Shown here: in pieces, positions 33,510 to 63,989 of the stretch
How positions within the stretch are numbered: position 1 is the stretch's first letter
Layout of the letters: each line of letters begins with the position of its first letter
Source: a virus
IMG/VR virus record: IMGVR_UViG_3300045988_113151
DNA length: 64,000 nucleotides
Direction: 5' to 3' (one strand)
Notes under the pieces: generated by a model
Told to the model about the DNA's origin: nothing
The model's database searches: none
Seen by the model: only the letters and a program-made list of their open reading frames with translations
Position numbers and translations under genes: made by a program

Positions 33510-36500
33510 ATGATAGACTTCTAGAAAAAAATATTAAATAGCAATAAGTTTAGACAAGCCTGTATTCAATTTTAGAATACAGGCTCTTATTGTTCATATC
33601 CTTCAGGAACATCTGAATACTATCAATTCTGGGATGAAGAAATGAACAGATGTATTAATGGTTATACTACCGATGATGGTGATTACATCACAGGGTATAA
33701 CTATTTTTATATAAACTATTGCCCTATACAAAGAATAGTACATACAGTAAAGAAGTTGCCAGATGGTACTACTAAAGTAATAAAAACTAGATCATTATAG
33801 TTTCCAGACTTTTATGACTATGACTATTACTTTTTCTTAGCAATGACAGAAGCTGAAGAAAAAGGTAAACATATGTGTGTACTTAAATCACGTCGTAAAG
33901 GTTACTCTTATAAGAATGCAGCAATGGCATGTCGTAACTATTACTTAATACCTAACAGTAAGACTTATATATACGCTTCAAATAAACAATATCTAACAGA
34001 GGATGGTATACTTACTAAAGCATGGGATTACATGGACTTTATAGATAAAAATACTGCTTGGGGTAAGAAGAGATCTGTGAATACATCAATGCGTAAAAGA
34101 GCTGGTTTCTTTACTAAAGATGAATTTGGTAATGAAATAGAAATGGGTTACAAGTCTGAAATAATTGGGGTATCCCTAAAAGACAATCCAGATGCAACTC
34201 GTGGTAAAGCTGGTAAACTTATTATATTTGAGGAAGCTGGTTCTTTTCCAGAATTAGGAGCTGCATGGTAGATTGCTAGACCTTCTGTAGAACAAGATGG
34301 TATAGCATTCGGAACAATGGTAGCATTTGGATGTGTGTGTGCTGGTACTAAAGTATGGACAGCTAATGGTAAGTGTGTATCTATTGAGGAACTCAATCCT
34401 AAAGATGGTATAATGGGGTGGGATACATATTAGGCTTATCCTCAAAATATATCTAATGTAAATCCTCCAGCAAAAAAACCATGTTTAAGAATAACTACTA
34501 ATACTGGTAGAACACTAGAGTGTAGCACAGATCACCCGTTGTTATGGTCTACTCCAGGTAAAACAAAAAGAGTACCTGGAAAAAGGAAAGAAAATGAACG
34601 CATGAAATCATGGTTATGGCACAAAGCTGAACTATGTAAAGTGGGAGATCAGGTTGGAGTTATTGATGAAGTACCTTATTTTGGTGACAAGAAAATGTGG
34701 GAACCAAGATTAGTAGGATGGTTGATAGGAGATGGTAGTTATGGTAATAATAAGACACCAATACTTAGTAATTGCGATGAATATATAAACAATTATATAT
34801 TTGAGAACTTTAATGCTAAAGTAGAAAAATCCTATCTTACTAAAGATAATAAATTATACTGTGAAACTAGGATCAAGGGTATATGTAAGAATTTAAGAGA
34901 ACTAGGTATATATGGACAAACTAGAGGTAATAAAACATTACCTATTAACATAGATGATTATGATTTTGAAAGCTTATCAGAATTAATAGGAGGACTATAC
35001 GATACAGATGGCTATATTAGAGTAGACAAAGATGGGAGAGTGAGAGTAATACTTACTCAAGCTTATGATACTTTATTAAAACAGCTTCAGATATTGTTAA
35101 TTAAATTTGGTATAAGCAGTTCTATTCGTTATATAAAATATAAAAATGAAAGAGTTCATATATCAAACGGGAAAACTATTAGATCTAAGAATGGGGAGTA
35201 CAGATTAGAAATAAACGATATTACAAGTGTGTGTAAGTTTGCTGATAGAATTCCTCTAACAGTTCAATACAAGTAGTCAGCTTTAGATATGATATTACTA
35301 TTTTCTTAGAAACATATAAATAAGTATAATAAGTATTTATGTGGCGTTCACGCTGAAAGAATAGTAAGTATAGAAGACATAGGACTACAAACAATCTACA
35401 ATCTTACTGCAAAAGAACAAAATAATTACATAGCTAATGGTATAGTAACTCATAACACTGGCGGTGATCCAGGTAGTAGTTTTGAAGCTCTTAGAGACAT
35501 GTTCTATAATCCAGACGGATATAATTGTTTATCATTTGAAAATATATGGGATAGTGCAGTAAGTAATACTAAATGTGGGTTCTTTATACCTCAGTATACC
35601 AATCTAGATATACGTAATGAGGATGGCAAAAGAATATATATGGATGATGATGGTAACACTAATGTTAAGCTGTCTCTACAATATATACTCGATGAGCGTA
35701 AAATAGTAATACAAAATGCTACTAGTTCTGTTGCTGTTGATAGATATGTTGCTGAAAGATGTATTACTCCTTAGGAAGCTTGTTTGGAATTTAACGGTAA
35801 TATATTCCCTAAAAAAGAACTTCAAGAATAGCTTGGTTTAATACGTACAAATAAAGCACTGTAGAACCATAAACAAGTTGGAGATCTTATATTTGATCAG
35901 TCTGGGTAGTTGAAATGGATACCTAAGAAACTTGGTGATATTACTAAATATCCTTTAGGTAAGGATGATGACCCAAAAGGTGCAATAGTAATATGGGAAC
36001 ATCCAGTTAAAGATGCTCCTTCAGGATTATATATAATAGGAGTAGACCCTTATGATCATGATTAGTCTGGTACAAATTCTTTAGGATCATCTATAGTGTA
36101 TAAAAGATTTCAGAGCTTTGAATCTTATTATGATATTATAGTAGCTGAATATACTGGTAGACCTGCAACAGCGGAAGAGTATTATGAGAATTTACGCAAG
36201 CTAGCGATTTACTATAATGGTAGAATAATGTATGAAAATGAACGTAAAGGTTTGTTCCCTTATTTTACAGCAAAGCATTGTGATTACTTATTAGCAGATC
36301 AGCCTGATATAATAAACGATATAGTAGGTAATTCTAAAGTACAACGCAAAAAAGGCTGCCATATGAATAAGCAAATAAAACAATGGGGTGAAGGCATGAT
36401 TAAAGACTGGTTAAATGAGGAGTATGCACCAGGTAAGAAAAATCTTACTAGAATACTATCTGAACCATTATTAGAAGAACTAATAAGCTATAATGATACT

Positions 36501-36692
36501 GGAAATTTTGATAGAGTGATGGCTTTAATGCAGGTAATGATATACAAAGAGTAGTTATATAACGTTGTTGTAAAACAGAAAGAAAAAGAGAATAAAGCTA
36601 AGCTGTTATTTGATGGGCCAATCTTTGCGCAGAGTTGGTTCCAAGATGACAAACCAAATATCAGTAATGACGATAATGTATATACATTTTAA
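33510..36692 (+). CDS. terL: terminase large subunit, TAG-recoded and intein-containing
   Basis: One frame runs from ATG 33510 to TAA 36690, crossing TAGs at 33522, 33573, 33798, 34269, 35274, 35772, 36552 and others. Walker A-like VLKSRRKGYS, Walker B LIIFEEAG, nuclease IIGVDPYDHD. Confidence 0.85.
34332..35456 (+). mobile_element. intein with LAGLIDADG homing endonuclease (375 aa) inside TerL
   Basis: Starts CVCAGTKVWTANG and ends IVTHN followed by Thr+1 (TGGDPG). LAGLIDADG motifs GWLIGDGSYG and IGGLYDTDGYI. It contains in-frame TAGs of its own. Confidence 0.75.
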
Positions 36693-36694: not shown

Positions 36695-39184
36695 ATGAAG
36701 AATTTAAAATCAATGCCGATTTAGAAACTCTCTATGTTCAAAAAGAATAAGGAGTGGAGGCAAGCTTGTGTAGACTATATCATAGGTGCTAGTGATTCTG
36801 GCTAGGGTAATTTAAATAGAGATAGATCTGATGAAATGCAGACTTACTATGATTTGTACAATAGTATATATAATGAAAAGGATCTAAAGTATGTTACTAA
36901 TCCATTTAAACAAGATGATGGATTCCCTGCTACAGCTTAGGACTATAATATAATAAAGCCATACATAGATCAGTTACTAGGAGAAGAAACTAAAAGACCG
37001 TTTAACTTCTATATAGCTAGAACTAGTGATGATGCTGCTAGTGAACTTCAAGAGAAAATGAAACAAATGCTAATGGACTATATCTATGCTACTATTACTA
37101 GTAAACTAAGCCCAGAGCAAGCAGCTAGATATGAACAAGCATTAGCTACTGGAGAAATTATGACTCCTGAGTAGATACAAAAATATGTTAATAAAGATTA
37201 TAAGGATATAGCAGAAACCACAGCATATCATACGCTATAGTATCTTAAGCGTAAATTGAATTTGATACACGAATTCTATAAAGGGTGGAAAGATGCGTTA
37301 ATAGCTGGTGAAGAGATTTATTATGTTGGTATAGTAAACGGTTAGCCATATACAGAAAGAGTAAATCCTATGTACTTTAGGTATGAACAATCTTTAGACT
37401 TAGAATTTATTCATGAGGCTTCATGGTGTTGTAGGAAAATGATTATGTCGGCTACAGAACTATATGATAGATTTTATGATAAAATGTCAGAAAAACAGCT
37501 GAACGATTTACTAGATTTAATAGATGAAAAACCAGGTACTTCTCCTGAAATAAGGAAAACATCTATGGATTACACTCACTATAAAATGTCTAGCATAAAT
37601 GGTTTTACTGCCAACCCTTTTGATGCTAATCATATTACTGTATATCACTGTTGTTGGAAATCATTTAAAAAGATAGGTTTTGTAAGTATAACAGATCCAT
37701 AGACTGGAGAAATAGAAGAGATACAAGTAGATGAAACTTATAAACCTACTGGTAGAGAAAACTATGTAGAATGGAAATGGATAGTTGAAACTTGGGAGGG
37801 TTATAGAGCTAATGATGATGAATATATAGGTATTCAACCAATAGAATATCAACATATATCAGCAGACAATCCTAATTCATAGAAGTTACCATATACTGGT
37901 GTTGTATATAATAATACTAATAGCAGACCTAGATCTTTAGTAAGCATGATGAAACCTTTACAATATATGTATATTGTAGTATGGTACAGACTTGAATTAG
38001 CTATGTCTAGAGATAAAGGTAAAGTAGCTTTGATAGATGTTACTTAGATACCTAAAGGATTAGGTATAGATGTAAATAAATGGATGCATTACTTAGGAGC
38101 ATTAGGTGTAGCATTTATTAATCCTTATGAAGAAGGTTGGGATGTTCCAGGACGTGAAGGTGGTAGACCAGCTCAGTTTAATCAGTTTCAATCATGGGAT
38201 CTTAGCATGGCTAATGTGATAGACCAGTATGTAAACCTAATGGCTAAAATAGAAGATATGGTAGCTAAACTTACTGGTATTACTCCTTAGAGATAGGGGC
38301 AAATAGCTCCAAATGAGCTTGTGTCTAATGCTAGTACAGCAGTAAGTATGTCTTATCATATTACTGAACCTTGGTTCTGGACACATAATCAAGTAAAGAG
38401 AGAGGTTTTAACAATGCTATTAAATACAGCTAAGGTAGCTTGGAAAGACAATAAAATGTGCTTGAATTATATACTAGACGATGCTACCAGAGCTTTTCTT
38501 AAATTATCTGATAGATTCTTCTATGAAGATATGGATGTGTTTATTGACGATAGTACTAAGAATAGACAAGACTTAGATGCTCTTAGAAATCTTATGTAGC
38601 CTGCTATGCAAAATGGTGCTAGTTTACTTGATATAGCTGAAATAGTTACATTAGACAATGTAAATATGATTAAGAGTAGATTAGAGGAAATTGAGCAGAA
38701 ACGTATGGAACAAATGCAGCAACAACAACAAGCTGAGCAGCAAGCTCAACAAGAACTAGTTGAAAAACAAAATCAAATAAAAGAAGAGGAGTTGATGATT
38801 AAAGAAGCTGAAATGGATCTTGAAAAATATAAGATAGATCAAGATAATGCTACTAAAATTACAGTTGCTCAATTAAATGCTTATAGAGGGTCTGAGAATA
38901 TGGATCAAAATGAAAACGGCATACCAGATCCTATGGAAATAGCAGCTCAGGCTTTAGAAGAAAGAAAACAGGCATCAGAAGAAGCTTCTAAACAATTTGA
39001 GTTCAATAATAAGCGTAGAGAAGTAGAGATGAAGAAAGAGATTGAAGATAAAAAAATTCAACTTGAAAAGGATAAAATCCAAGCTTAGAAAGAATTACAA
39101 GCTCAAAAAGATAAAGCTGCAATGGAAAGAGAGAGATTAAAAGCTAAGACTGCAATTAGGAATAAAGTAACAGGAGAGCGTTAA
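36695..39184 (+). CDS. portal protein, TAG-recoded (829 codons)
   Basis: Immediately follows TerL. One frame joins track ORFs 37370, 38084, 38321 and 38606 across TAGs at 37700, 38288, 38597 and 39086. Ends at TAA 39182. Q/E-rich C-terminal coiled coil. Confidence 0.7.
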
Positions 39185-39185: not shown

Positions 39186-39539
39186 ATGAAGATAATTCAG
39201 AACAAACTAATTCCTTTTAAAGGATATAAATATATTAACTTATTTGGGTTATTGTTTACTAGAGATAAATCTAAAATAACAGATATAGAGTATAATCATG
39301 AGAAGATTCATCTTAAGTAGATGCAAGAAATGTTGTGGTTGCCATTTTATATCTGGTATGGAGTTGAATACTTGGTTATAACAGTAGCTAGGTTATTTGA
39401 TAAATAGGGAGATAGGTATCATGATATATCTTTTGAAGAAGAAGCTTATAATAATGAAACTAATCTGAACTATTGTAGTGACAGAAAGCATTTTGCTTGG
39501 TTAAAATATATAGGTATTAAAAGTAATTAGGAGGAATAA
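39186..39539 (+). CDS. hypothetical protein with HEKIH motif, TAG-recoded
   Basis: Hand translation MKIIQNKLIPFKGYKYINLFG...NHEKIHLK-TAG-MQEML...; ends at TAA 39537. Confidence 0.45.
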
Positions 39540-39597: not shown

Positions 39598-39957
39598 ATG
39601 GAACGTGAAGCATTTAGATAGAGAATGCAACAGTATAAGTAGGCTAGGGAAAGCAATCCCTAGCTGAAGTACTGGGATTGGAAGAAGTATGCAGATGGTG
39701 GTACTATAGAAGAGGATCCTCCAACTACTAGCGAAAGACCTATTATAAATTTTGATCCTAAAGGAAATCCGTACGAAGCTAAATATGGTTATAATCCTGG
39801 AGCTGGATTTACTAGAGATCCGTTTAGTCTATATGATGCTCCTGTTATAGGTGACGCTTTAAGTATATATGATGCATCAGAGGCTTTAAAGAATAAAGAC
39901 TTGTTAGGTGCAAGTTTAGCAGCATTAGGAGTAGTGCCGTTTGTCCCTAGTAATTAA
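39598..39957 (+). CDS. hypothetical virion-module protein, TAG-recoded
   Basis: Hand translation with three in-frame TAGs in the first 22 codons; ends at TAA 39955. Confidence 0.45.
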
Positions 39958-40014
39958 AGAGCTAGAGCTATTGATAGTAGATATGGTACTAGTTATGAAG
40001 CTGTTTATAAAGGT

Positions 40015-40596
40015 ATGAATGAAAGGTATCAAGATCCTATGGAATATTTTATGTCTAGTTATGAACCAGTATTAGATGCTAATCTAAGTAGTAGTACTAA
40101 AGCTCAAGTAAGTAGTAATCCTAAGAATAGAGATATAAGATTCAGTAAAGGAGTTAATACTGGAGAATATAACATAGATACTGGATTAATTAGACACGAA
40201 ATAGGTCATAAAGTAGATATAGATGCTACTAGAGGAGCTGTCAATACTAATCCATTTATGTAGGATTTAGCTAAAGACATATTACCTTATGATCAAGCTA
40301 GATATATGTTACACGGAATAGAAAATCCTGTTGAATCATACAAGTACTTGACTACTCCTACAGAAATTAAAAGTCACATGAATCAATTTAGATAGTATCT
40401 GATTGATAATAAGATAATGAAACCTGGAGATAAAGTTGATGATGTTCCTAATTTCTTTATGCATTTATAGGCAGCTCCAGATGAATACAAAGGAATAAAA
40501 TTATTGCAAAATTTATTTAAGACTGATAGAGCCTTTAAGAAAAGGTTTGATTAGATACCGTTAACGAATATCAAAGATAACAGAGTAATAGCATGA
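40015..40596 (+). CDS. hypothetical protein with HEIGH zinc-peptidase-like motif, TAG-recoded
   Basis: LIRHEIGHKVD; the frame continues past TAG 40261 to TGA 40594. Confidence 0.5.
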
Positions 40597-40662: not shown

Positions 40663-41871
40663 ATGGAAAAAGAAAATAAGATTACTTTAGGTGGATTTGA
40701 CGCTATACTTGATAGCTTCATCCCTAATGTAAATAAAAATGTTGAAAATATCATTGCAGACGATTCTGTTGAAGAAGATGAATTAGATAATATTAAAAAG
40801 AATCAATTCGATCCTATTACAGATAATATAAAAAAACAAAAGGACAAGAAGGACGATAAGGCAGAAGATTCTAAAGACGATGTTGCTGATCCTGATGAAA
40901 CAGATGATAAGTTAGATATAAAATAGAAGTCTAACGATTCTAAAAAGAATAACAAAACTATAGATAAAGTAGATGAAAAAGATGAATTAGATGGTGACGT
41001 CGATGATGAATCTACTGAAGTAGATAGTAATGTAGTAAGTAACTTCTTTGACGCTATTGCTGAGAAATTAGGTTGGGATATTAATGAAGAGGATGAAGAT
41101 AGTAAACCTAAGGATGTAGACAGTCTTATTAAATATTTTCAAGATATTATAGAAGAAGAAAGCAAACCTACTTATGCTAGTGAGGAAGTAGAAGCACTTG
41201 ATAACTTCGTAAAACAAGGTGGAGATCTTAAACAATACTTACAGATAGATGCAGAGTTGGATCTAGATGATATTGATATGGAAGATGAGTCTAATCAAAA
41301 GTTAGTAGTAAAACAGTTCTTAAAAGAAAAAGGTATTAGTGCTAAACAAATAGAAAAGAAAATATCCAAGTATGAAGAAGCTGGTTTACTTGAAGATGAG
41401 GCTCAGGATGCATTAGAAAGTCTTAAGGAGATAAAGGAAGATAAAAAAGAACAGCTATTATTGGAACAGAAAAAACAATATGAGCGAATGGTTGCTAACC
41501 AACAGAAATTCTATAATAGCGTTGTCTCTGAAATAAAAGGCTTAAAAAATATACGTGGTATTACGGTCCCTGAAAAAGACAAAAAAGTATTAATAGATTA
41601 TATACTTAAGCCAGACACCGACGGTAAAACTAAGTACCAAAAGGACTATGCTAAAGGTGGTGTAAAGAACTTAATAGAATCAGCATACTTTACTATGAAT
41701 GCAGATAAACTATTAGAAGCTGCAAAAAAAGCTGGAAGTAACTCAGCTATTGATAAGTTTAAAAATAGTTTAAAAACAACATCTGTAAATACTCGATCTA
41801 AACAAATATCAAAGAGTAATGATGATGAGCCTATTTGGTCAAATATTGCACGAAAACTGCGTATATCATAA
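40663..41871 (+). CDS. acidic coiled-coil protein, scaffold candidate
   Basis: Track ORFs 40663 and 41257 share a frame joined across TAG 40924. Very D/E/K-rich. Located directly upstream of the MCP gene. Confidence 0.5.
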
Positions 41872-41909: not shown

Positions 41910-43379
41910 ATGGATAACAATATTTTGAACTCGTTGGTCCTTTATAAAGGAAAATGGTTTAGCGATTTGATTGATACTAATAAAATCAGTCTCGCTTCTC
42001 AGCAAAGACCTTACGAGGTATCTACTATCCTGTCATACGTATTTGGTACTAAAGATAATGGTTACAGTACTTCTCTGGATATGTTGACAGGAGGTCTTGG
42101 TAACGTAATGACTATTGACAAACCGTCATTTGAATGGGGCGTAATGATTGATCAGGACAGAGCCGTTACAATTCGTGATGCAAAATGGAATGGAACTACT
42201 ATTTCTGAAGATTCTACTCCTGGTCTTGGTAATACCCCTATCACACTGTGGTTAGAAGATAGCTGGTTTGGACCTGGTGCTACAGTAGAACTTGATGACA
42301 AGAGTCAGTTGCGTTTCGCTGATGCTCCTTATCAGGATGGTAACTTATTCGTTTATACAGGTTTCATTGCTAATGGTAACCCTGCTTCTTACATTAATCC
42401 TCGTTATTTGCAAGCTGGTTGTCAAGTATCTCGTTTGGCATCTGCTTATGAAGAATACAGTGAAGAGGCTGATATCCTGAACTACAATACTCACTTCAAG
42501 ATGCGTAACTATTTGACTACAGTTCGTTTGTCTTATGATATTACAGGTTCTGCATACTCTGAAGTAATGGCCATTGCTTTGAGAGATCCTAAATCAGGTA
42601 AGACTTCTTACTTATGGTCAACTTTCCAGGAATGGGTAGCTATGCGTGAATGGTATAAGCGTCTCGAAAGAGCTTTGGTATATAATCAGAACAACGTAAA
42701 TAAGGATGGTTCTTGTAACTTGAAAGGTAAGAACGGTCGCCCTGTATTTATTGGTGCTGGTTTGTTGGAACAGATTGCTCCGTCTAACAGACGTTATTAC
42801 ACTCGTTTGACAGCAGAATTACTGGAAGACTTCTTGTCAGATTTGTCTTACAATGTACTTGGTACTAACGAACGTAAATTCATCGGTTTGACTGGTGAAA
42901 TGGGTCTTCGTGAATTTGACCGTGTACTGAAAGAAAAGATGGCTAACTTGAACATGATTGATACTGTATTTGTATCTGGTTCTGGTGAAAACTTGAAATT
43001 TGGTGGTCAGTTCAAAACTTATGCTATGAGCAACGGTATTGAACTTACTTTGAAGTACTTCCCGTTGTATGACGATTTGACTCACAACCGTCAGTTGCAT
43101 CCTGTAACATTGAAACCGCTGGAATCTTACCGTATTACTTTCTTGGATCTTGGTCGTCGTGACGGTGAAGCTAACGTAGTTAAAGTAGTTCGTAAAGATC
43201 GTGAATTCGTTAGCTGGTGTACTGCTGGTTCTGTAACTCCTGCTGGTTACGCTCACTCTAATACTGAAGTTCGTTCTAACGCTAAGGACGGTTATGCAGT
43301 ACATTTCTTGGGTGAATGCGGTATTATGTTGAAAGATCCTCGGGCGTGTGGGGAATTGATAATGGATTCACAAGATTGA
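41910..43379 (+). CDS. major capsid protein candidate
   Basis: 489-aa uninterrupted ORF after the scaffold-like gene. Marked shift to higher G+C and CGT/GGT/CTG-type codons, suggesting high expression. No TAG codon. Confidence 0.65.
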   Translation: MDNNILNSLVLYKGKWFSDLIDTNKISLASQQRPYEVSTILSYVFGTKDNGYSTSLDMLTGGLGNVMTIDKPSFEWGVMIDQDRAVTIRDAKWNGTTISEDSTPGLGNTPITLWLEDSWFGPGATVELDDKSQLRFADAPYQDGNLFVYTGFIANGNPASYINPRYLQAGCQVSRLASAYEEYSEEADILNYNTHFKMRNYLTTVRLSYDITGSAYSEVMAIALRDPKSGKTSYLWSTFQEWVAMREWYKRLERALVYNQNNVNKDGSCNLKGKNGRPVFIGAGLLEQIAPSNRRYYTRLTAELLEDFLSDLSYNVLGTNERKFIGLTGEMGLREFDRVLKEKMANLNMIDTVFVSGSGENLKFGGQFKTYAMSNGIELTLKYFPLYDDLTHNRQLHPVTLKPLESYRITFLDLGRRDGEANVVKVVRKDREFVSWCTAGSVTPAGYAHSNTEVRSNAKDGYAVHFLGECGIMLKDPRACGELIMDSQD

Positions 43380-44903: not shown

Positions 44904-45581
44904 ATGACACGATCTGAATTTCACTCATACTTTAAGATAGCAATGGACAAGAACTCCTAGAGTGTAGCTTTTGGAGGATGTCCATCTTTCTTACCATAGG
45001 AAATAGACTATTGGTTAAATCAAGGTTTATATCAAGAAGTGAGTAATAAATTCACAGGTAACAATTCTCTATAGACCCCATTTGAAAAGTCAGTTAAACG
45101 AGTGCATGATTTAGAAAAGTTAGTTAAAACAGATAGCGGGTTAGTTGCATCGAAAGTATCAGATTCAAATCAATGCAAGTTAGAAAACTTATTTGGAGGT
45201 TAGAGAATGTTCTTTGTGGATGCTACTTTAAACTACAATAATAAGAAAGCTGATATTAAGCTTATTGACCACGATAGTGCTAAACGTTTTAAGAAGACTT
45301 ACAATAATAATCCTTGGATTGAAGAGCCAGTAGGCGTTATCCAAGATAATACATTGATAGTTTATATAGATGATCTATCTATGGATAGTACATCTTACTC
45401 AATAGATCTTACTTACGTAAAAACTCCTACTAAGATAGAGAATTTACCAGCTAGTGGCATGAGTGAAATACCAGAATATATGTAGTTTGAAGTTATTAAT
45501 AGAGCTGTAGAATTAGCTCTTGAAGACATAGAATCTAAAAGAGTTCAAACTAAATCACAGCTTAATCAAATTGATGAATAA
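44904..45581 (+). CDS. hypothetical head/neck protein, TAG-recoded
   Basis: ATG 44904 is in frame with track ORF 45207; it continues past TAG 45483 to TAA 45579. Confidence 0.5.
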
Positions 45582-51768: not shown

Positions 51769-54700
51769 ATGGCACAGTATGCAACTAAAGATGAATTAAA
51801 TGAACTAGTAGTACTAGTAAGAAATCTTCAAGGTGATATTAATACTCTAGATACTAGTGTAGGCGAGCTTGACACACTAGTAGAGAGAATTAACCATCTA
51901 GCTACCTTGAAAGATGTTACTATTACCTATATAACTGAAGGAGACCTACTATAGTACTCTAGTGATGGTACATGGCATAATATACAACCATCAGCTTTAG
52001 GTATTGGAGGTGAAGGAGGTGGTGGTATTGTTGATACTTCCGTAGTTAAAGCAATGATTAAACAAGAAGGATCTAAACTGTTCCTTAGTAAACTACAGGA
52101 TGATCAAGCTGCTGGAATTATTACCTTCAATAATGGTTTAGTAAGTAATAAAATGACTTATTTAAAAGAAGGTGTACAAATAGGTCATTTCGTATCAGGT
52201 ATGATTGGTGGTACAGGAGCTCAAATAGACAAGGATGGTAGAGGTGAAATGACCAGTTTGATCCTTAGAGAGTTTCTAGAAGTACCTGAGTTGAGATTTA
52301 ACAAGATAGATGTTGTTAGTGGTGAATTATGGAACTCTATAGCATTTGGTACTATTGAAGATGTAGATATAGCAAACTAGATTGTTACTGTTAAACTAGA
52401 AGAAGGTGAATATAGCGGCATCAAAGTAAATGATATATGTAGAGGTATATTCCACAATTTAGGTTCTGGTAATGATACAGAGTCAAAACCTGATGAGAAT
52501 GGCTTTGATACAGTAGCTGGTTTCAGTACGTCTTACTTTACACCTATTGAAGTATTAGACTCTTTTGGTAAGTAGTTTAGATATACTTTAAAACCTGGTA
52601 CTACACAACATCCTAGTAAGTCAATGAAGTTCGTTGTATATGGTAACTTTACAGACCCTAATAGACGATCTAGTGCATATGCAACAAGAACATACAAAAG
52701 ATACTTAAAAGACGTAAATACATGGCAAATAGACTGGACTAATATTGCATCATAGTTTGGTTTACTAGACGGTCTTAATATACCAGGTGGACCTAATGAT
52801 GGTAATCTTACTGGTGATGGTGCTTATCTTACTAATGTATATATGACAGGTGCACTTATTCAGTTTACTCCTGAATAGATGGATGAAATGAAAGGTCATG
52901 ATGCATATTCAGTATCATTAAGTAGAGAAACAGCTACTATTATACTTGATAACAATTTAAATATTATTGATGAGTATAATCAGTTAAGTCAATTGACATT
53001 TGCTATTCAAGCATTTAAAGGTCCAGTAGAATTAGCATATAGTGATGTATACGGTGAAGGTACATACTTCGTAGAGTATGAAGCCACTGGTCTTAAGTGT
53101 ACTATGAGTAATGGAGTATTTAGAATTACTGAAATTACTAATGTTAGTGACATGCGAATAAAGATCACTGTAAACTGTGAAGGATTAGCTTTATTTAAAA
53201 AGGAATTCTTACTTAATTATCAGTTAGAAGGTGATGCTTTATGGGTAACGTATAATGATAATGATGCAGTACCTAACAGACCTACTGGTAGAGGTGAAAC
53301 TGATGGTTGGCATAGAAACTATACAGCCAGTGCTATATGGATGTCAACTAAGAGTTCTAGAAGAATTGATGAAGGTGAATGGGGAGATCCAGTAAGATTC
53401 GTAGGAGCTTCTGTACAGGGTGAAGATGGTCAGTATACAGTATTCTGTTATACTAATTCTAGTGTACAACCAGAAACACCTACAAGTACATAGATACCCC
53501 CTTCTGATTCATTAACTACTTGGTATATGTATCCACCAGAAAGAGAAAGTACAGATGTATTTACTTGGATGACTCAAGCTACAGTATATGCAGATAAATC
53601 ATTATCTGGTTGGACTAAACCTATTAGAATTACAGGTGAAACTGGTGAAGATGGTTCTGATGGTACTAAGATAGAATTTATATATACTTTGTTTACTCCT
53701 ACTAATGATAAACCAAGACCTGATACTCCATCTACTAGTCAATAGGATGATTACATACCATTTGGATGGTCTGATAATCCACAAGGTGTATCTAAAGAAA
53801 AACAGTATGAGTGGATAAGTACACGTGAAAAGAAATCAGCTAAGTTAGGTGAAGGATATTGGGGTGAATTTTCATAGCCAGTTGTATGGTCTAAATGGGG
53901 AGAAAAAGGTATGGATGGAGATGGTTATGAGTACATATATACTCGTACTTCTGATGTAGATAAAGTTCCAGCAACCCCTTCTTCTATACAATAGAATGAT
54001 TATATACCTACTGTATCAAATGGAGGTTCTACAGATTATGATTGGTCTGATGATCCTAAAGGAGTAAGTGAGACATATAAAGCAGAATGGACATGTAAAC
54101 GTGTAAGAACTGATGGTGTATGGTCTGACTTTAGTACTCCAGCGTTATGGTCTAACTGGGGAGAGCAAGGCTTATCAGGAGGTCATTACCAATATAGATG
54201 GAAAGTGTCAAGTACTAAACCTTCTACTACTCCAGATAACGATTCTTCATGGTCTACTAATAGTGAACAAGCTATTGAGAAAGGTCAATATGTGTGGTAG
54301 ATTCAACGATTTGTTAATCCAGATGGTACTACTACTGAGTGGAACAATATAATTAGATTAACTGGTGCTGACGGTAAAGATGGTGAAGATGGTAATAGTA
54401 TCGAATTCTTATATGCTCGTAATAGTACAGGTAAGATACCACAAAAACCAGCTGATAATCAAATTGATGATTGGACAGGTACTGGACCAGATGGTACAGA
54501 ATGGACTGATAATCCACAAGGAGTTACACCTAATATAATTTATGAGTATGTATGTCAGCGTTATAAGGATAAAGCTACTCAATTATGGGAACCTTATTCC
54601 AATCCTGGTATATGGGCTAGATATACTGAAAGAGGTAAAGATGGTGATGGATATGAATATATCTATATAAGACAATCTACATGGAAATCTCAAGGTCAAT

Positions 54701-56391
54701 TGAATCCTAGCTCAGACCCAGTATATATAACAGATGGCAATATATACCCACCAGCAGATGTAGAGTCAGACGCTTATCAAACTGATGACTATGTTCCTGT
54801 CGGTTATTCTGACAATCCAGAAACTGTAAACAGTTAGATAAGATATCAGTATATGTGGGCTAGAAAGAAAGAAGGTGGTAAATGGCAAGCTTGGAAGAAC
54901 GGTTCATTGTGGACTAACTTTGCAGTAGATGGTGAATAGGGTGAGCCTGGTGAACCTGGTACTCCAGGAGGTAGTATAACAGTTAGCGGTGCTCCAGCTT
55001 CTATTAGATCTAGATTAGGTTTCTTACAAACTACTAATTGTACTTTAAGAGCTATTCGTACTAATACTTCTGGTATTACTCAATCTGCAAGTGGTAATTA
55101 TGCTGTTTACTATAAAAGTAGTTCTAGTGGTAGTTGGTCTAAAGCCGATAGTGGTTCAGGTACTAGTTACTAGTTATCTTGGTCTTCTAGTTTAAATGCC
55201 GAATATTTCTGGTTTGGATTTAGTACAGATGTAACTCCTAGTCCTACAGGTACGTATAATGTATGGAGTGTTGAAGTACCAGTAGTATATGACGGTAAAG
55301 ATGGTTCTGACGGATCTGATGGTTCTGACGCAGATTCTAGTTATACTCTTATGAGAGATTGTGGTGTTTGGAACTCTGGAGCATATTATTATAATGATAA
55401 AGCTACTAGCGCTATGAACAGTAGTGAGTATATTAAATATCAGAATTATAATAATATGTATGTAGTGGATTATGTAGTATGGCAAGGCGTTACTTACTTA
55501 GCTAAGACAAACCACAGTAATGTTCAACCACCTAACTCTTCATATTGGGAAACTTCATCTAAAGTAACAGCTTTGACTGTTAACAATCTATTAGCCAATA
55601 ATGCTAAACTAGGAGAGTTTAATTTTAGTGGAAACACATTTACATCATCTACTGGTACATTATCTCTTAATAGTTATAATGGCGAATTATGGTGTAGTAG
55701 TGCTCATATAAATGGTGTAATTCATGCAACAAGCGGCTCGTTTACTGGTACAGTAAATGCAACAAGTGGTACGTTTAATGATATTACTGTATAGTCTGGT
55801 AATATAGCTGGCTTTAAAATATCAGGAAATAATTTGGTTAATAATGCTACAAATGCTAGTATACAATTCTCATTAACTGGTAGTCAATTTTTGCAGATAA
55901 ATAATAGTTCTTACACAGGTCTTATAGATGTACGTAGAGATGGAGGTACAGCTATTAGAGCTCAAGCTTATGGAAGCAATTCAACTGGTTTATCAGTTGC
56001 TGCTCAAGCAGGTTATGCTACTAGCGTTAAAGCAATAGACTCTATTGGTAGTTGTCAGTTTGTAACTAGAGACTCAGAAAGAATATTAATAAACGGTTTA
56101 TGTGTTAATACTGTAACAGTAACTAGCAGTTATAATGCTAAAACTAGCGATGACTTTATAGTATGTAATAATACTGGTGCTATTACCATTAGTCTCCCTA
56201 GTGTAGGAACATTCTATAAAGGTAAGATATATTACATAAAACCTACCAATACAGGTAACTGGACCGTTAGTGGTGGTATCAGGTTAGCTGACCAAAGAGG
56301 TACAAAATACTCTCAATCGTATAGTGATAATAAGATAAGAGGATTTATATTTGATGGTAGCTATTGGAATGAAATGTTCTTTAGTAATTAA
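51769..56391 (+). CDS. giant tail fibre/tail-associated protein with tandem repeats, TAG-recoded (1540 codons)
   Basis: Track ORFs 51769, 52054, 52879, 53527, 55351 and 55834 share one frame. I read 54301-55350 codon by codon and found only TAG interruptions. About 90-aa repeats of W-[ST]-D-[ND]-P-x-G-V...Y-x-W, collagen-like GEPGEPGTPG, and GSDGSDGSD. Confidence 0.7.
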
Positions 56392-56398
56392 TAAATGT

Positions 56399-56701
56399 AT
56401 GAAAATAGATTTTAATAAATTAAAAGTATATACAGGGTTAGACAAAAAGGAATGTGTACTAACACAAGCTGCAAAAGAACTAGCAGATGGTCTTTATAAG
56501 ACAGCTATGGGAATATCTGGTTATGCTTTAGCATTAAAATTATATAATAGCAAAGGTGAGGAAGAGTACACTGAAGAAGAATTTAGTATGATTATGAACT
56601 ATGCCAATAAATACGGTACTCCATTTTTCATTGATGCATTACAAAGGTTAAAGGAAGATGAAAGATCAAATGATTTAGAATCAACTGAAACTAATGAGTG
56701 A
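56399..56701 (+). CDS. hypothetical protein, 100 aa
   Basis: Track ORF trimmed to the Met after the upstream stop. Confidence 0.4.
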   Translation: MKIDFNKLKVYTGLDKKECVLTQAAKELADGLYKTAMGISGYALALKLYNSKGEEEYTEEEFSMIMNYANKYGTPFFIDALQRLKEDERSNDLESTETNE

Positions 56702-56876
56702 TAGAGAACTGCTAGAGGGCATCTATATGATGCTCTTAGCAGTTATGCAAGAACAATATATAAGTGATAGTAAACAGTTTGGCATAAATATGATAGCTGA
56801 TTTACTAGTTGATAATATATCTAGGAGCAGAGAAAGAAATGAAAAAGATAACATTGCAACACGTATTAGGGAATAA
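56694..56876 (+). CDS. hypothetical small protein
   Basis: ORF track. Confidence 0.35.
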   Translation: MSDRELLEGIYMMLLAVMQEQYISDSKQFGINMIADLLVDNISRSRERNEKDNIATRIRE

Positions 56877-56970
56877 GATACTAGAGTATGATGTTGATGA
56901 TAGAGGTGTAATCGTTGATGAAAGAGAAAAAGATCGCTATGCTAAGCAGTAGGATAGTAAGGAGAAATTA

Positions 56971-57978
56971 ATGTCTAACTGGATTAAAGAGCATATCGTT
57001 TTCTACTATGACGTAAAGAAGCAAGGTGCGACCAACGAAACATTGAAGGAGTCTGCTTACTTGCAGGACTTGTCGGGTAAAGGGAGGAGGATGAAATTAA
57101 ATAACTTCTTGTTTGCCGAAATGAGTGGTGTTGGAGGATACAACGACAACTTTAGTAATTGGAGAACAGATTCAAACAATGGAGTCGTAAAAATAGAATC
57201 GGACTCATCAATTGTAATACAATCCGTAAAAATAGAATATAGAGGAGCATTATATCAAGATAGTACTAAAAAAGCAACTTTAAAATGTAATATTACAGGG
57301 ATAACGGAAGAACTTAAAGGTAAGTTAATCTTTAGATACACAGATGCAGAAGGTGACAAAAATATTACATTGGAAAATGGATACTTTGAGTTCAACTCGA
57401 GTGAATACGAAGGATTATCCGGGTGGTATGGGTTTAGTTCCAAGCAGCCTATAGACAACTGCAACATCACCATTACTCAGATACCCGAATATCCCGGTGC
57501 ATTAGTGACAGATGGTGTAGATGATTACGGATTGGTAGAGAATCTGAGTAGTGGAGTGAAGATGCTGTTTATGACGGTTAATCCGATAGGGGACTTTAAC
57601 ATTGGTAAGATGTACTACTCGCAAAGACATAACCCGATAGATATCACTCCATTCTATATCTTTACAGGCGGTACTAATAATATTGCTTATGCAGGAAATA
57701 GGGATGGTGTAACTTATATTAACGGAGTATTAAACAAGTCTATTACGTATAATGAATTGTTTGGAGTGAAACATACAATTACGACTGTAAACGATAACGT
57801 TAAGCCTGAGACAAGTAAAGCTCCTTCTTTCTTTTGGGGAGAAGGGAACACTAAGAATTATTGCTCCAGACTCGCCTTCTACAACTCCATAGCCTTTGAC
57901 TCCATACCAACAGAGGCAGACGGATTCACAGAGCAAGAATTAATTGATTACGTAATTGATAAATATGAATTAAAATGA
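56971..57978 (+). CDS. LamG/ConA-like domain protein; may start at 56839 via TAG read-through
   Basis: PGALVTDGVDDYGLV resembles the LamG-type FDGVDDYV motif. G+C is clearly higher than the surroundings, and there is no TAG in 335 codons. The same frame is open upstream through TAG 56950 to ATG 56839. Confidence 0.5.
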   Translation: MSNWIKEHIVFYYDVKKQGATNETLKESAYLQDLSGKGRRMKLNNFLFAEMSGVGGYNDNFSNWRTDSNNGVVKIESDSSIVIQSVKIEYRGALYQDSTKKATLKCNITGITEELKGKLIFRYTDAEGDKNITLENGYFEFNSSEYEGLSGWYGFSSKQPIDNCNITITQIPEYPGALVTDGVDDYGLVENLSSGVKMLFMTVNPIGDFNIGKMYYSQRHNPIDITPFYIFTGGTNNIAYAGNRDGVTYINGVLNKSITYNELFGVKHTITTVNDNVKPETSKAPSFFWGEGNTKNYCSRLAFYNSIAFDSIPTEADGFTEQELIDYVIDKYELK

Positions 57979-58199
57979 GATACGTTATAGTAACAATAGA
58001 ATGGTGCTTGGAACACGGTATAGTAGTTCCTGAACACGCAAGAAAGAATATTGATGGTACTAAAGTAATCTTACACGAAGATTGGTTAAAACCTATTCTT
58101 TATAGAGAAGATGAAAAGCAAGTAGAATCTTACTTCTATGACAGTAAAGAATTAAATGATATTCTTAACACTGAAGAGTGGAATGGAAAGGAGGAGTAA
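57975..58199 (+). CDS. hypothetical small protein
   Basis: ORF track. Confidence 0.4.
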   Translation: MRYVIVTIEWCLEHGIVVPEHARKNIDGTKVILHEDWLKPILYREDEKQVESYFYDSKELNDILNTEEWNGKEE

Positions 58200-58657
58200 T
58201 GGATAGAAATAAGTTAATTGAAGAAGTTAGTAAATACTTCAACATAAAAGAACTAGTATGTCCTCATTGTTATAATAAGTTTAAAGATAACTCATGGTAG
58301 TTCATATCAACCGAGTTACTAAGTACTTTATATGTATTAAGAACTGTAGTAATAAATAAACCAATGGTAATTAATACTTGGGCTACTAATGGTAGTTATA
58401 GTCAGAGAGGTTTAAGATGTAACATGTGTTAGTTAGTAAAGAGTAAAACTAGTATATACATGTCAGCTCATAGTTTAGGTAAAGCTATAGACTTTCATGT
58501 ACCTGGTATGGATGCAGAATCTGTTAGAAATCTTATAAGAGCTAACGTAGATAAATTCGAGTATCCTATAAGAATAGAGAAGGATACGAATTGGATTCAT
58601 ATCGATAATTACCAGCAAAAGGGCTCTTCTAACAAACTTTCTGAGTTTGTAGGATAA
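58199..58657 (+). CDS. peptidase M15-type endolysin, TAG-recoded
   Basis: SAHSLGKAIDFHV and NWIHID zinc-ligand motifs. ATG 58199 is in frame with track ORF 58460 across two TAGs. Confidence 0.7.
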
Positions 58658-58709: not shown

Positions 58710-59039
58710 ATGGAAAAGCAAACAATATTATATAATATATTATATATTGATGAAAGAGCTAAGAATCTAATACCAGAAGTAGTAGATGCTTGGAATATTA
58801 CTCCACATAGATTTAGTAAAAGTGGTGAATCAGTATCATTAAAGTTAAATGATACTATAGAAGAAATTAAAGGTTACAGTACTTCAGATTTTGTAGATAT
58901 AGAAGTTACTAGAAAAAGTATTATTATTACTTTACAACCTAATACTACTCAAGGATCTAGATAGGCTAGAATTACTTTAAGTATAGGTGGTAGGGAACAT
59001 TCTACTAAACTGTTGCAATTTGTAATACACTAGAATTGA
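58710..59039 (+). CDS. hypothetical protein, TAG-recoded
   Basis: The track ORF continues past TAG 58962 and TAG 59031 to TGA 59037. Confidence 0.4.
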
Positions 59040-59059: not shown

Positions 59060-59635
59060 ATGGTTAAAATTATTGAGAGCTATACAGCTCCAAATCCGAA
59101 AGAATACACATACTGGGTAGATCTAACCAGTAATCCAAATAAAGGTGTTATTAAGTATTTTAAAGGTAATGGTAAATGGGCAGATGTCAATGATAAGACT
59201 AATGACGATTAGTCTAAAGACATTGAACAGTTACAGAAATCAGTAGATAACTTAAAGTCAACTAAAGTAGATAAAGTATCAGGTAAAGAACTTTCTAGTA
59301 ATGACTTTACTGACTCTTATAAGAGTAAGCTTGATGGTATAGCAGCTCAGGCTAATAAATACGTTTTACCTGCTGCTACTGCATCTGTTTTAGGTGGTGT
59401 AAAGACTGGTGCTAATATCACTAATACTAGTGGTACTATTAGTCTGACTAAAGCGAATGTTACGGCTGCTTTAGGTTATACTCCTCCTACTGCTGATACT
59501 AAAGTTAATGTTAATAATACTCTAACAAGTACTAGTATAGTTGACGCTTTGTCAGCAGCACAAGGTAAAGTTTTAAAAGATTTAATTGACGCACTAACTG
59601 CTAGAGTTTCTGCATTGGAAACTCCAGCTGCATAA
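59060..59635 (+). CDS. short fibre protein
   Basis: The N-terminal YWVDL..NP..G.IKY..G..W anchor motif is shared with the next gene. Fibre repeat LSSNDFTDSYKSKLDGI. One in-frame TAG at 59210. Ends ...TPAA. Confidence 0.55.
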
Positions 59636-59645: not shown

Positions 59646-62600
59646 ATGGATACAGTAAGATTTTTTGCTGCTAATACCCAACCTAACCCAGTAGAAGTTG
59701 ACTACTGGGTTGACCTTTATGATAACCCTTATGGTGGTAGCATTAAATATTATAATGGTACAGAATGGGTAAGATTAGCAGCTTCTGGAGGTATTCCAGA
59801 TTTAAGTAAGTACTATACTAAAGTACAAGTAAACTAGTTACTTAATGATAAAGCTAGTGTATAGTCAGTTGAAAGTAAAGTAGACGATGAAGAGGTAAAA
59901 GATGTAGTTAAGAATATCACATTTAGAACTTCTAATCCAAACGAAGTACAAATGGTACTCGCAAAATATGATACTACCACTGTTGCTATATCGTTACCTA
60001 AAGCTAGCAATGCTTCTGCTGGTATAGTTACTTCTGATGATTTTAAAGACTTTGTTAAGTAGGCAGAACTTCAGCAATTATATCAAGAACTATACGATAG
60101 TAATAGTACTATAATTAATACTATTAATGATATAAAAGCTAAATACCAAAAGAAACTGACAGCTGGTAGTAACATAAAAATATCTGATGATAATGTTATA
60201 TCAGCTATTATTTCAATTGATGGAAGTGATATAGATATTGATGGTATTAATAGTAAAATAGACGGACTGACTGATAAATTACAGGAAGAAGTTACTAGGT
60301 CTACTAATGCTGATAATAAACTTACACGCGATTTAAGCGCTGAGTCTACTACTGCTAGAGCTGCTGAGAAAAAGAACGCTGATAATATCGCTAGCAATAC
60401 TCAAGCTATTCAGAAAGAGGTAACAGATAGAAATGCTGCCATTAAGGTAGAGACTGACAGAGCTACTGCTGCTGAAAATAAATTAGCTAATGACATTGTT
60501 ACTACAGTTGAAACAGAAAAAGATAGAGCAGAAGGTGTAGAATAGGTTATAATTAATGATTTAGCTGAAGAAGTAACTAGAGCCAAAGCAGCTGAGCAAG
60601 CTAATAAGACTTCTATAAATAAAGAAGTTACCGATAGACAATCAGCTATTGCAACTGAAGTAGATAATAGAAACGCAGCTATAGAGGTTGAAAAACAAAG
60701 AGCTCTCAAAGCAGAAGCTGCATTAGATTCTAAGATTGCTACTCATACTAATGAAATTAATACTGCTTTAGCAACTAAAGCTGATAAATCTACTACTTAT
60801 AACAAAACAGAAGTAGATAGTAAAGTAAGCACTATCAATCAAACTAAACAAGATAAACTTACAGCTGGTTCTGGAATTAAGATTGAAAATGATACTATAA
60901 GTTCTACTCTTGATGTGCAATTGTATAAAATAGTTGATTCTTTACCTACTTAGGATGTAGAACCTGGTAAGATTTACTTAGTATTAAGTGAGATATCTAC
61001 TGAATCAAATAAGTATACAGAGTATGTGTATGTTAATAATGAGTGGGAAATCATGGGATCTTATACCGCTAATGTAGATCTTAGTGGTTACTTAACTAAA
61101 ACAGACGCAGCTAGTACTTATCAACCTAAGGGTAATTACGCATTAAAAACTGAAATACCAGATGTATCTACAAAGGCAGATACTTCATATGTTAATACAC
61201 AGATACAAACTGTAAATACTGAAATAAATAAGAAAGCTAATAAAGCTGATTTACATGCTGTAGCTACATCTGGTAATTATAATGACCTTACCAATAAGCT
61301 TAAAGCAGGAAACGGTGTAACTATTACTAGTGATAATACTATCAACACTAGTGTAGATTTATCAGGAGTTACTAATAGTATTAGTGAACTTGATAGTAAG
61401 ATAGAAGCCGAGATATCTAGAGCTACTATAGCAGAGTCTAATAAGGTAGATAAGATAGTAGGTAAAGGTCTTAGTACTAATGATTATACAACAGCAGAGA
61501 AGAATAAGTTAAGCGGTATCGCTGCTGGTGCTTAGGTTAATGTATAGTCCGATTGGAATGCTATAGCAGGAGATTAGATGATATTAAATAAACCCACCTC
61601 CTTACCAGCTAGTGATGTTAGTGAATGGGCAAAAGCTAAGACGAAGCCTTCTTATACAGCAGCAGAAGTTGGTGCTGTTGCTACATCAAGTTATACCGCC
61701 AATGATGTATTGAACAAATTAAAAACTGTTGACGGTTCAGGAAGTGGTCTCGATGCAGATACTGTTAGAGGCTTTACTATAGCTAAATCAGTTCCATCAG
61801 ATGCTAAGTTTACTGATACTACTTACACATTTGCTAATGGTGCAGACGGTTCATTCACTGTAACACTTAATGGAGGTAGTGCGTAGAAGGTATCTATTGG
61901 TAAACCTGCGGAAGCAATGACAGTTAAATATAGCATAAGTGATATAACCAAAGCAGAAAATATATTGCTTGGAGGCACCAGTGAATATCATTTTGCTATC
62001 TAGATTAATAAAGATAGTGATAATGTACCATATGCAGAGTTAAATACTGGTAGTAGTGGTATGAATCCAATATATGTTAGACAATACGACACTAGTGGAA
62101 TTAGAAACAGTATAACATTGCTAGATCCTAATGGTAACACACTATTCCCCAATACCGTAACAGCTAACAGAATCGTCGCATCGAATTTCACAGGTTCATT
62201 AAAAGGTAATTCAGACACAGCCACTAAGTTAGCTACTGCTAGGAATATAGCTCTTAGTGGAGACTTAACAGGTAACGCTAACTTTGATGGTAGTAGTAAT
62301 ATTAGTATAAATGCATCTCTTAAGTTGATAGATGAGGATGGTAACGCTTCATTTGATGGTGTTGTTTCTGCAAATTCGTTCTCTGGAAACTCTACATCAT
62401 CTACTAAACTTTAGACTCCTAGGAGTATTAACGGTACTAACTTTGATGGTAGTGCTAACATAACTACAGCTAACTGGGGTACTGCTAGAAATATCACTAT
62501 AGGTAAGACAGCTAAATCAGTTAATGGGTCAGCTAATGTATCATGGTCTACTAGTGAGATAGCTAATAATGCAACTACTACAACAGATGGATGGATGAGT

Positions 62601-63989
62601 AAAGAGGATAAGTTAGCATTAGCTAATTTGAATAGTGAGTTCTACGGAAAAGAACAAGTAACAGTATCTGTTAAAAAAGATGGGGTAGCCCATTCTGTTT
62701 AGATTGATATTAAAAATAAAGATAACGATGAAGTTATAGCTACTTCTACTGGCAGCAGCTTAACTACAAGAATTGTGTATGGAGTTAAATATTATGTATC
62801 AGTTCCTTATATAGACGGATATTCTACTGCTAATGAAAGCTCAGAATATACAGCTTCGCAATAGGTAAGAGCTATAAACATCGAATATATGAAATGTGAT
62901 GAAATCACAATAGATCAAACTGTAACAGATCCTAACTCTATGATATCAGGAGATGTTAACGGTACTGTATTATAGTGGATACGTAATAACACTCACAGGT
63001 ATGTTGCAAAGAAAACTGGAGATGGGCAGGTTACTATATGTCAGTTAAGCGATAATAATACTACTAAATTCTATGACAATTTAACGAGTTCTTCTGATTA
63101 CATTAGTAATATTAACTATGATGTATTTGTCAGAATACCTAGATTCTGGTATAAAGCTACTGAAACTACTACTAACGTTTGGAAAATAACATTTTCTAAC
63201 ACTAAACAATCTAGTACATGGAAGGAGTGGGATGGTAACGATCTAATTGGAGCTTATGAAGGTTATGTCGCTGGTTCTACATTACATAGTAGATCAAATA
63301 TATCGTCTACTGGTGATACTTCACAAACAAATTTTAAGGCATATGCTAGATAGAAAGGTACTGGATACACTCTTGTTAAATGGAAACACCATTGCATTGT
63401 AGGAGTGTTATATTACGCATTATATGGTAATACTAATTGCCAAGCTACTATAGGCAGTGGTACTAATTCTTATACTAAGACTACTGGACTTACTAATAGT
63501 TTAGGTATGAATGATTCATCAGCCTCTGCAACAGGAAATAGCGGTAGCATAAACTTCTTAGGATTAGAGAACTGGTGGGGTAATAAATATGAATTCATCG
63601 ACAATGCTGTATTCAACTATGGTAGTTCTAATTATAAATTTACTATAACAGAAGATGACAATAGTACTAGAGAAGTTCAAGCTCACCCATATACAGGTAC
63701 ATTTTACCCTACTGTAATGGTATTTGGAGAGCATTTAGATCTTGTTATGAAACCTAATACTACTTCTGGAGCAACTTCTATTGGCTTCTGTGATAGTCAG
63801 TATTTTTCAGGAAGCTCTAATTAGGTGGTTCGGCGTTCTTGCGGCGTCTCGGATGCCAATGGGGGTGTGGCTTACTTGGGTGCGTACTACTCGGCTTCGA
63901 ATACTGTCTCGGACATTGGTTCCCGTCTTGCCTTCAGAGGTACTATCATAGAAGAAAAAGATATAGAAACTTTTAAAGCTTTAAAATAA
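59646..63989 (+). CDS. long tail fibre, TAG-recoded (1447 codons)
   Basis: Track ORFs 59646, 61026, 61578, 62061 and 63405 share one frame separated by TAG only; ends at TAA 63987. Long coiled-coil section, LSTNDYTTAEKNKLSGI repeat, and a GC-rich C-terminal tip. Confidence 0.7.

Follow-up and report, generated by a model that had tools for sequence, protein, structure and literature searches.

Why should the packaging, head, tail and lysis genes of a phage be cut into fragments by only one of the three stop codons? The question is raised by IMG/VR record IMGVR_UViG_3300045988_113151, a stretch of 64,000 nucleotides (nt) that was analyzed as a whole and is called the window here; positions 33510–63989 hold a rightward late module whose genes are interrupted by TAG. 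An initial annotation proposed that TAG is a sense codon in this module. Judged by its matches, the window is about 64 kb of a gut crAss-like phage of the Suoliviridae (the former ‘Delta’ group of Crassvirales). All of the best DNA and protein matches are to Suoliviridae, the gene order is alike, and a crAss-type major capsid protein (MCP), large terminase subunit (TerL) and portal are present. The nearest annotated genome is cr6_1 (NC_055894), with approximately 80% nt identity across the head module and 78% amino acid (aa) identity in the portal. Near-identical genomes occur in IMG/VR (97–99% aa identity, with a 515-aa early protein as the query), and relatives at approximately 94% nt identity were found in Logan assemblies, four of them independently assembled from different samples. 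The recoding of TAG to glutamine (Gln) in the window is real. The first reading was correct, as was its remark that the phenomenon had already been reported for crAss-like lineages, since it is known for Suoliviridae and described in the Delta group (PMC7886860).

Open reading frames (ORFs) were read from stop to stop with TAG as sense, giving 22 consecutive plus-strand ORFs over 33510–63989. These contain TAG in frame 97 times and TAA or TGA not once, although the other two frames of the same genes hold 367 and 809 TAA and 140 and 542 TGA. The absence of TAA and TGA had been noted wherever the initial annotation read the frames codon by codon. The 27 triplets that it listed are all TAG, each in the frame of its own ORF and thus a subset of the 97, and the terminators that it quoted (TAA 36690, TAA 39182, TGA 43377 and TAA 63987) are right. 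Its statement that the fragments are separated by TAG only applies to the 97 sites; it fails at one junction, where TAA 39955 stands between two ORFs. Coverage by ORFs of at least 100 aa, the comparison of coding density that had been suggested, is 65.0% under the standard code (table 11; 37 ORFs, the longest 491 aa) and 98.1% with TAG as sense (23 ORFs, the longest 1543 aa). Reading TGA or TAA as sense instead was rejected, as coverage reached 65.3% and 70.7%, respectively, with no specific gain. The gain from reading TAG as sense is limited to the plus strand of the right arm. Interruption by TAG alone, together with such a gain in coverage, is far beyond chance.

The restored genes behave as single units. 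TerL (33510–36692, + strand; 1060 aa, 13 in-frame TAGs) was identified by its match to the PHROG terminase large subunit; once the intein described below is removed, the match runs over residues 14–660 of 685 in one stretch across the TAGs (E = 1.8e-157). The portal (36695–39184, +; 829 aa, 13 TAGs) is likewise matched in one stretch over residues 6–813 (PHROG portal, E = 9.4e-159). Every TAG in these two genes is therefore crossed by an uninterrupted profile match, which bears out the claim that readthrough restores whole genes. The claim that the module is translatable only with TAG as sense is true of 18 of the 22 ORFs. The MCP (41910–43379), a GIY-YIG endonuclease (43462–44124) and the ORFs at 47472–48005 and 56354–56701 contain no TAG and are the exceptions. 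The proposed range of 33510–63989 does contain the 97 TAGs, but additional sense TAGs lie outside it, at 27849, 28490, 32800 and, on the minus strand, 581.

The use of TAG is otherwise concentrated in this one module. TAG accounts for 97 of its 379 Gln positions (25.6%), for 2 of 41 in the middle genes and for 1 of 197 in the left arm (Fisher p = 1e-18). Within the module, TAG positions are evenly distributed along the genes and no late gene is significantly enriched in TAG. Only two genes are depleted: the MCP (0 of 13 Gln codons, p = 0.02) and a 402-aa protein encoded at 40663–41871 (1 of 18, p = 0.035). The MCP genes of six recoded relatives (cr6_1, cr114_1, cr53_1, cr130_1, cr7_1 and L012) contain 2 TAGs in total against 80 CAA/CAG, and from these sequences the avoidance of TAG in the MCP holds across the recoded lineage. 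The bases immediately before and after TAG do not differ significantly from those around other codons, and no context was found that separates a sense TAG from a stop.

The initial annotation considered that the inserted amino acid could not be determined from the window alone. Comparison with relatives amends this, as it gives Gln. The residue was inferred from codon comparison at the DNA level, with TerL and portal aligned to six or seven Suoliviridae orthologues and TAG masked. Portal matches in protein databases were not used for this purpose because their gene callers had already placed Q at TAG. At the window's TAG columns, 52 of the 132 ordinary orthologue codons (39%) encode Gln, whose background frequency is 4.7%; aligning the TAG columns to orthologues, as had been proposed, thus identifies Gln as the matching residue. 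In log-likelihood, computed from the same alignments, Gln is ahead of the runner-up, glutamate (Glu), by 120 units. Gln occurs at 14 of 36 positions in the two orthologues whose TerL and portal genes follow the standard code (cr1_1 and ProJPt-Bp1). As a yardstick, the window's own CAA/CAG codons align with Gln in 48% of cases. In each of the four genomes at approximately 94% identity, the codon opposite a window TAG is TAG 42–45 times, CAA/CAG 7–9 times, GAA/GAG twice and TAA/TGA never. In the reverse comparison, TAGs of the relatives sit opposite CAG or CAA in the window, except for one TGG in one genome. These strain-level swaps with CAA and CAG imply that TAG acts as a synonymous Gln codon. 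On this comparative evidence, TAG in the late module is glutamine.

The initial annotation can also be amended by a candidate decoder, which is present in the window. An amber-suppressor tRNA with a CTA anticodon, which reads UAG, lies at 33403–33475 on the plus strand (ARAGORN; 42.5 bits with the Rfam tRNA model) and has no encoded CCA. It adjoins the end of the TAG-poor nucleotide-metabolism genes, starting 43 nt past the last of them and ending 35 nt ahead of the TerL start. ARAGORN labels it ‘Pyl’, which we set aside as only the program's default for a CTA anticodon. The tRNA is 100% identical in all four of the approximately 94%-identical genomes, and CTA tRNAs occupy the syntenic position in L012, cr6_1, cr114_1 and cr53_1, the last three being annotated as tRNA-Gln in RefSeq. 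The sequences of these syntenic tRNAs are widely divergent; they have in common a weak or mismatched 1–72 pair and A73. A weak or mismatched 1–72 pair is likewise a feature of bacterial tRNA-Gln. The identity set for Escherichia coli glutaminyl-tRNA synthetase (GlnRS) consists of U1–A72, G2–C71, G3–C70, G10, G73 and U35. The window's tRNA has U35, a weak U1–G72 pair, C2–G71, U3–A70, A10 and A73, and one base bulges from its T stem; the tRNA thus shares U35 and differs in its acceptor elements, although the E. coli rules may not be those of the presumed Bacteroidales host. U1–A72, G2–C71 and G3–C70 are present in the CTA tRNAs of cr6_1 and cr114_1. A blastn search of the tRNA region against the phage collection gave no match and hence no lead on the ancestry of the tRNA.

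The remainder of the genome treats TAG differently. The leftward arm (1–26 kb, minus strand) encodes a DnaB-like helicase, a primase and an ECF-type sigma factor; homology to cr6_1 adds a DNA polymerase. Its 6106 codons include a single in-frame TAG against 196 CAA/CAG. That TAG, at 581, lies in a DUF1064/endonuclease-like gene of the replication arm (297–671, –); it is at the same site in cr6_1 and inside the Pfam DUF1064 match (residues 10–96), and is therefore a real sense TAG. Under the standard code, six or seven ORFs of the left arm end at TAG. One of them (9744–10250, –) terminates at TAG 9746, which is kept in nine close relatives and which aligns with the residue at which the cr6_1 homologue stops with TAA. 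Another (21845–22270, –) terminates at TAG 21847, a codon that is TAA in five of six close relatives. Two more, at 18035–17580 and 17575–17165 (–), also end at TAG, the former with a tandem TAG TAG. Peptides beyond the TAGs of early proteins showed no similarity to cr6_1 in the two cases that could be compared. From these alignments, TAG is a true terminator at 21847 and 9746. Early TAG stops and late Gln TAGs together mean that one genome uses TAG in both ways.

Between the two arms, a rightward middle block (26.5–33.4 kb) encodes ThyX, dUTPase, dATP/dGTP diphosphohydrolase and small regulators. It contains sense TAGs at 27849, 28490 and 32800, and alignments continue through each. TAG 27849 is the one sense TAG of a gene at 27726–28100 (+) whose alignment to cr6_1, L012 and L009 crosses it, with TAG also in L012 and L009. 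The small gene at 28376–28624 (+) has TAG 28490 opposite Gln in L009, Glu in cr6_1 and Asp in L012; a second TAG, at 28592, may be the true stop of this gene. A conserved 182-aa gene upstream of the tRNA (32542–33090, +) has TAG 32800, through which six relatives align, L012 with Gln.

We favor a reading in which early genes use the standard code and late TAGs are read as Gln by the phage tRNA(CUA), an arrangement that would time the synthesis of late proteins, and assign it a probability of roughly 0.88. The leftward replication genes would be translated in the standard code, with hardly any in-frame TAG and with TAG sometimes serving as the terminator, and the rightward packaging, head, tail and lysis genes, in which approximately 26% of the glutamines are spelled TAG, would depend on readthrough. 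The tRNA, presumably charged with Gln by the host GlnRS, would decode UAG in competition with host release factor 1 and so be the agent of readthrough. Before it builds up, ribosomes would be expected to halt at codon 5 of TerL (33522, the first TAG of the gene), with four residues made, and early in most of the late genes. Because late proteins would be truncated until the tRNA accumulates, virion and lysis proteins would be delayed; full-length products would appear only once the tRNA is expressed, which would amount to a translational timer on top of transcription.

Several observations weigh against this reading. Genes with 13–16 TAGs demand very efficient suppression. The tRNA is without E. 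coli-type Gln acceptor elements (it has C2–G71, U3–A70, A10 and A73, with a bulged T stem), and the case for Gln is therefore made by the codons, not by the sequence of the tRNA. A scan for sigma-70 promoters and terminators around the tRNA gave nothing above shuffled controls. No release factor, aminoacyl-tRNA synthetase or other code-change protein was found with Pfam among 27 proteins (10 from the late module and 17 from the left arm and middle block, a set that leaves out about two dozen small ORFs). Finally, the genes with TAG at 27726–28100, 28376–28624, 32542–33090 and 297–671 (–) are located upstream of the tRNA or in the opposite arm, which blurs the division into early and late.

These points have to be set against what other explanations would require. 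Were TAG an ordinary stop throughout, the fragments would be independent short genes, decayed pseudogenes or the result of errors in sequencing or assembly, and the standard code does leave 37 ORFs of at least 100 aa. However, the frames are broken by TAG alone (97 against 0 TAA/TGA) even though TAA and TGA are the commoner codons out of frame, and the TerL and portal profile matches cross the TAGs uninterrupted. Most TAG positions are also kept in independently assembled genomes from different samples, and the RefSeq relatives show the same TAG pattern. The TAG-only frames, the strain comparison and the profile matches refute this explanation, and we give it practically no chance. A different residue at TAG (Glu, pyrrolysine, or the Tyr, Lys, Leu, Ser or Trp of classic amber suppressors) is highly improbable. 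It could draw on the ‘Pyl’ label, on the lack of E. coli-type Gln identity elements in the acceptor of the tRNA, and on Glu, which is second at the TAG columns (20 of 132) and whose codons GAA/GAG replace TAG twice in each close relative. The label merely names the anticodon, though, and Gln exceeds Glu by the 120 log-likelihood units given above and all other residues by more. Swaps to CAA/CAG (7–9) against those to GAA/GAG (2) match the usual Q/E exchange, which is also seen at ordinary Gln codons, and peptides of related phages carry Gln (PMC9523058).

The two remaining alternatives accept Gln and concern where and how it is inserted. If reassignment were unconditional and genome-wide (pure code 15), the early TAG ‘stops’ would also be read as Gln. 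RefSeq annotates cr6_1 in this way, with TAG as sense throughout and some early genes lengthened as a result, and the conserved sense TAG at 581 in a replication-arm gene points in the same direction. We nevertheless regard a uniform code as very unlikely: five of six close relatives have TAA at codon 21847, TAG 9746 falls where the cr6_1 homologue stops with TAA, the two cases comparable with cr6_1 show nothing conserved beyond the early TAGs, one early gene is closed by tandem TAGs and the left arm has only the one in-frame TAG in 6106 codons. Readthrough might instead depend mainly on something else, such as inactivation or depletion of release factor 1 in the host, a suppressor of host origin or a tRNA modification, with the CTA tRNA as an accessory. 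In the recoded genomes cr130_1 and cr7_1, no tRNA was seen in the 5 kb upstream of TerL, recoded phages with no detectable suppressor have been reported (PMC7886860), and 13–16 TAGs per gene would seem hard to decode by competition alone. On the other side, the tRNA of the window is present, syntenic and invariant despite approximately 6% divergence of the surrounding genome, and the proteins searched include no candidate release-factor antagonist. A main role for such a factor is thus unlikely in our judgment, if less so than the alternatives above, and it is compatible with decoding by the phage tRNA, not exclusive of it.

With TAG as sense in the late module, the 1060-aa TerL product divides, on sequence grounds, into a TerL of 685 aa and an intein of 375 aa that includes a LAGLIDADG homing endonuclease (34332–35456, +; Pfam Intein_splicing and LAGLIDADG_3). 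The intein corresponds to residues 275–649, from CVCAG to VTHN with T following (boundaries read from the sequence), and holds three of the TAGs (34431, 35274 and 35307). It is polymorphic among near-identical genomes, being absent from L008 (TerL of 685 aa) and present in L009–L011 (1060 aa). The window's TerL can be aligned with that of cr6_1, cr114_1, cr53_1, cr1_1, cr130_1 and cr7_1. The portal is followed by a small protease-like protein (39186–39539, +; 117 aa, 3 TAGs; PHROG 15610, E = 3.8e-40) and by two ORFs in the same frame, 39598–39957 (119 aa, 3 TAGs) and 40015–40596 (193 aa, 4 TAGs), with the in-frame TAA at 39955 between them. In relatives, 39598–40596 is a single 404-aa gene; compared with L008, L009 and L011, the window has a 216-nt deletion plus the in-frame TAA, and L010 has a frameshift at the same junction.

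Upstream of the MCP lies the 402-aa protein mentioned above (40663–41871, +), which is acidic, has its one TAG at 40924 and has a syntenic counterpart annotated as ‘regulatory protein’ in cr6_1. The MCP itself (+; 489 aa) matches Pfam Crass_capsid with E = 1.6e-203 and is directly followed by the GIY-YIG/NUMOD homing endonuclease (+; Pfam), which is free-standing. Six conserved virion-module genes on the plus strand are syntenic with cr6_1 gp15–gp10: 44149–44901 (1 TAG), 44904–45581 (5), 45584–46306 (4), 46406–47386 (2), 47472–48005 (0) and 48002–48541 (3). They are followed, all on the plus strand, by a 1069-aa tail-associated protein (48538–51747, 9 TAGs; a weak Beta_helix match in the product of relatives), a 1540-aa tail protein (51769–56391, 14 TAGs), the TAG-free ORF at 56354–56701 and a 379-aa protein (56839–57978, 1 TAG). 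The endolysin (58199–58657, +; 152 aa, 2 TAGs) is Peptidase_M15-like, with a PHROG endolysin match at E = 7e-20 and a weak match to Pfam Peptidase_M15_3; TAG makes up 2 of its 5 Gln codons, which is not significant. Two small ORFs, 58710–59039 (2 TAGs) and 59060–59635 (1 TAG), precede the 1447-aa tail fibre (59646–63989, 16 TAGs), which closes the module at TAA 63987; all three are on the plus strand.

A second translation-related RNA is encoded in the early arm. A two-piece (permuted) transfer-messenger RNA (tmRNA)-like gene lies at 18950–19209 (–), with 48.5 bits against the Rfam tmRNA_permuted model (cut-off 47) and a permuted tmRNA call by ARAGORN, which gives the tag as VRNDKSFVTDYTRIAA and then a stop, ending in DYTRIAA. 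Its acceptor stem, read from the sequence as GGGGUAU/AUACUCC, has G3–U70 and A73 and is thus of the alanine type. After it comes a degenerate tRNA-like element without a proper anticodon arm (18835–18908, –; the region as a whole spans 18835–19239). The gene is conserved in close relatives, and the homologous regions of cr114_1, cr125_1, cr60_1, cr52_1, cr10_1, cr50_1 and cr115_1 are annotated in RefSeq as ‘transfer-messenger RNA, SsrA’. It is tempting to combine the suppressor tRNA at the head of the late genes, the phage tmRNA and the strict avoidance of TAG in the MCP, as the late gene with the heaviest translation, into a coordinated kit for taking over translation, in which the tmRNA is tied to the code switch and would rescue ribosomes that overrun TAG-terminated host or early-phage messages once suppression begins. 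We consider this idea speculative and improbable.

Other RNAs and mobile elements were observed along the window. The intergenic gaps of the early arm contain, on the minus strand, RAGATH-14 (24181–24417, 169 bits), RAGATH-9 (20394–20547), two Hatchet ribozymes (23695–23807 and 21654–21792) and a sub-threshold RAGATH-20-like match (19602–19682); Hatchet and RAGATH-9 also occur in cr6_1 and close relatives. A tRNA-Arg with anticodon TCT is encoded in the replication arm (8531–8604, –), and the ECF-type sigma-70 family protein (185 aa; 16561–17118, –) lies among the early genes. ThyX (28736–30511, +) contains no TAG and is 591 aa long, compared with 285 aa in close relatives. A LAGLIDADG-like insert, judged from the sequence to be probably a second intein, separates its N-terminal part from the Thy1 match (residues 451–590). 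At 31059–32024 (+), the dATP/dGTP diphosphohydrolase is fused to a NUMOD4/HNH homing endonuclease, again free of TAG. Both GC skew and AT skew change sign at approximately 24000–27000, at the divergence of the leftward and rightward gene blocks, as would fit a replication origin, a terminus or a strand-switch point.

These results have practical consequences for annotation. Gene calling in the late module needs TAG = Gln; the standard code loses about one third of the module, and TerL, portal and the tail proteins show up as fragments. TAG should be kept as a stop in some of the early genes, which uniform calling with code 15 makes too long. For this window, the analysis adds which amino acid TAG stands for, where the tRNA lies, the two uses of TAG and corrected gene models. 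No new principle is added beyond published work on Suoliviridae; if the favored reading holds, this is another clean case of a virus delaying its virion and lysis proteins by means of a codon that is a stop to its host.

The classic precedent for such decoding is supE-type suppression in E. coli, in which a tRNA-Gln whose anticodon is CUA competes with release factor 1 and places Gln at UAG. The window resembles it in having a CUA-anticodon tRNA and Gln at UAG. It differs in that the tRNA is phage-encoded and has an unrelated acceptor stem, and in that suppression would be an obligatory part of phage gene expression, not a leaky mutant phenotype. Much closer parallels are found within the Suoliviridae, a family listed among the recoded ones in a 2026 preprint and whose RefSeq records translate through TAG. 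Five members, cr6_1 (Bearivirinae, Afonbuvirus faecalis), cr114_1, cr53_1, cr130_1 and cr7_1, have the same gene order as the window. Like the window, cr6_1 has TAG-rich late genes (14 in TerL and 11 in the portal), TAG-free MCP and homing endonuclease genes, and a CTA tRNA, annotated as tRNA-Gln, closely upstream of the TerL region. The tRNAs of cr6_1 and cr114_1 are very different in sequence from that of the window, and the Suoliviridae orthologues share its individual TAG positions only in part. In cr6_1, a free-standing homing endonuclease occupies the interval from the tRNA to TerL; the window instead carries an intein within TerL.

As in other crAss-like phages with code 15 (PMC9523058; Borges et al., bioRxiv 10.1101/2021.08.26.457843), the replication module follows the standard code, the genes for structure and lysis show recoding and a suppressor tRNA is present. 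The model in which a code switch sets the timing of expression comes from the same two studies. Lysis genes of the window are not detectably more recoded than its other late genes, in which it differs from those phages. Two crAss-like phages have yielded peptides with Gln at TAG (Peters et al., 2022; PMC9523058); unlike phages with such metaproteomic data, the window is known from sequence alone. In the Delta group (Yutin et al., 2021; PMC7886860), reassignment of TAG to Gln is seen mainly in late genes, suppressor tRNAs are encoded, and TerL typically has an intein, with TAG in the TerL portion and in the intein portion alike. There is no substantive difference between that description and the genome examined here, which is one more member of the group.

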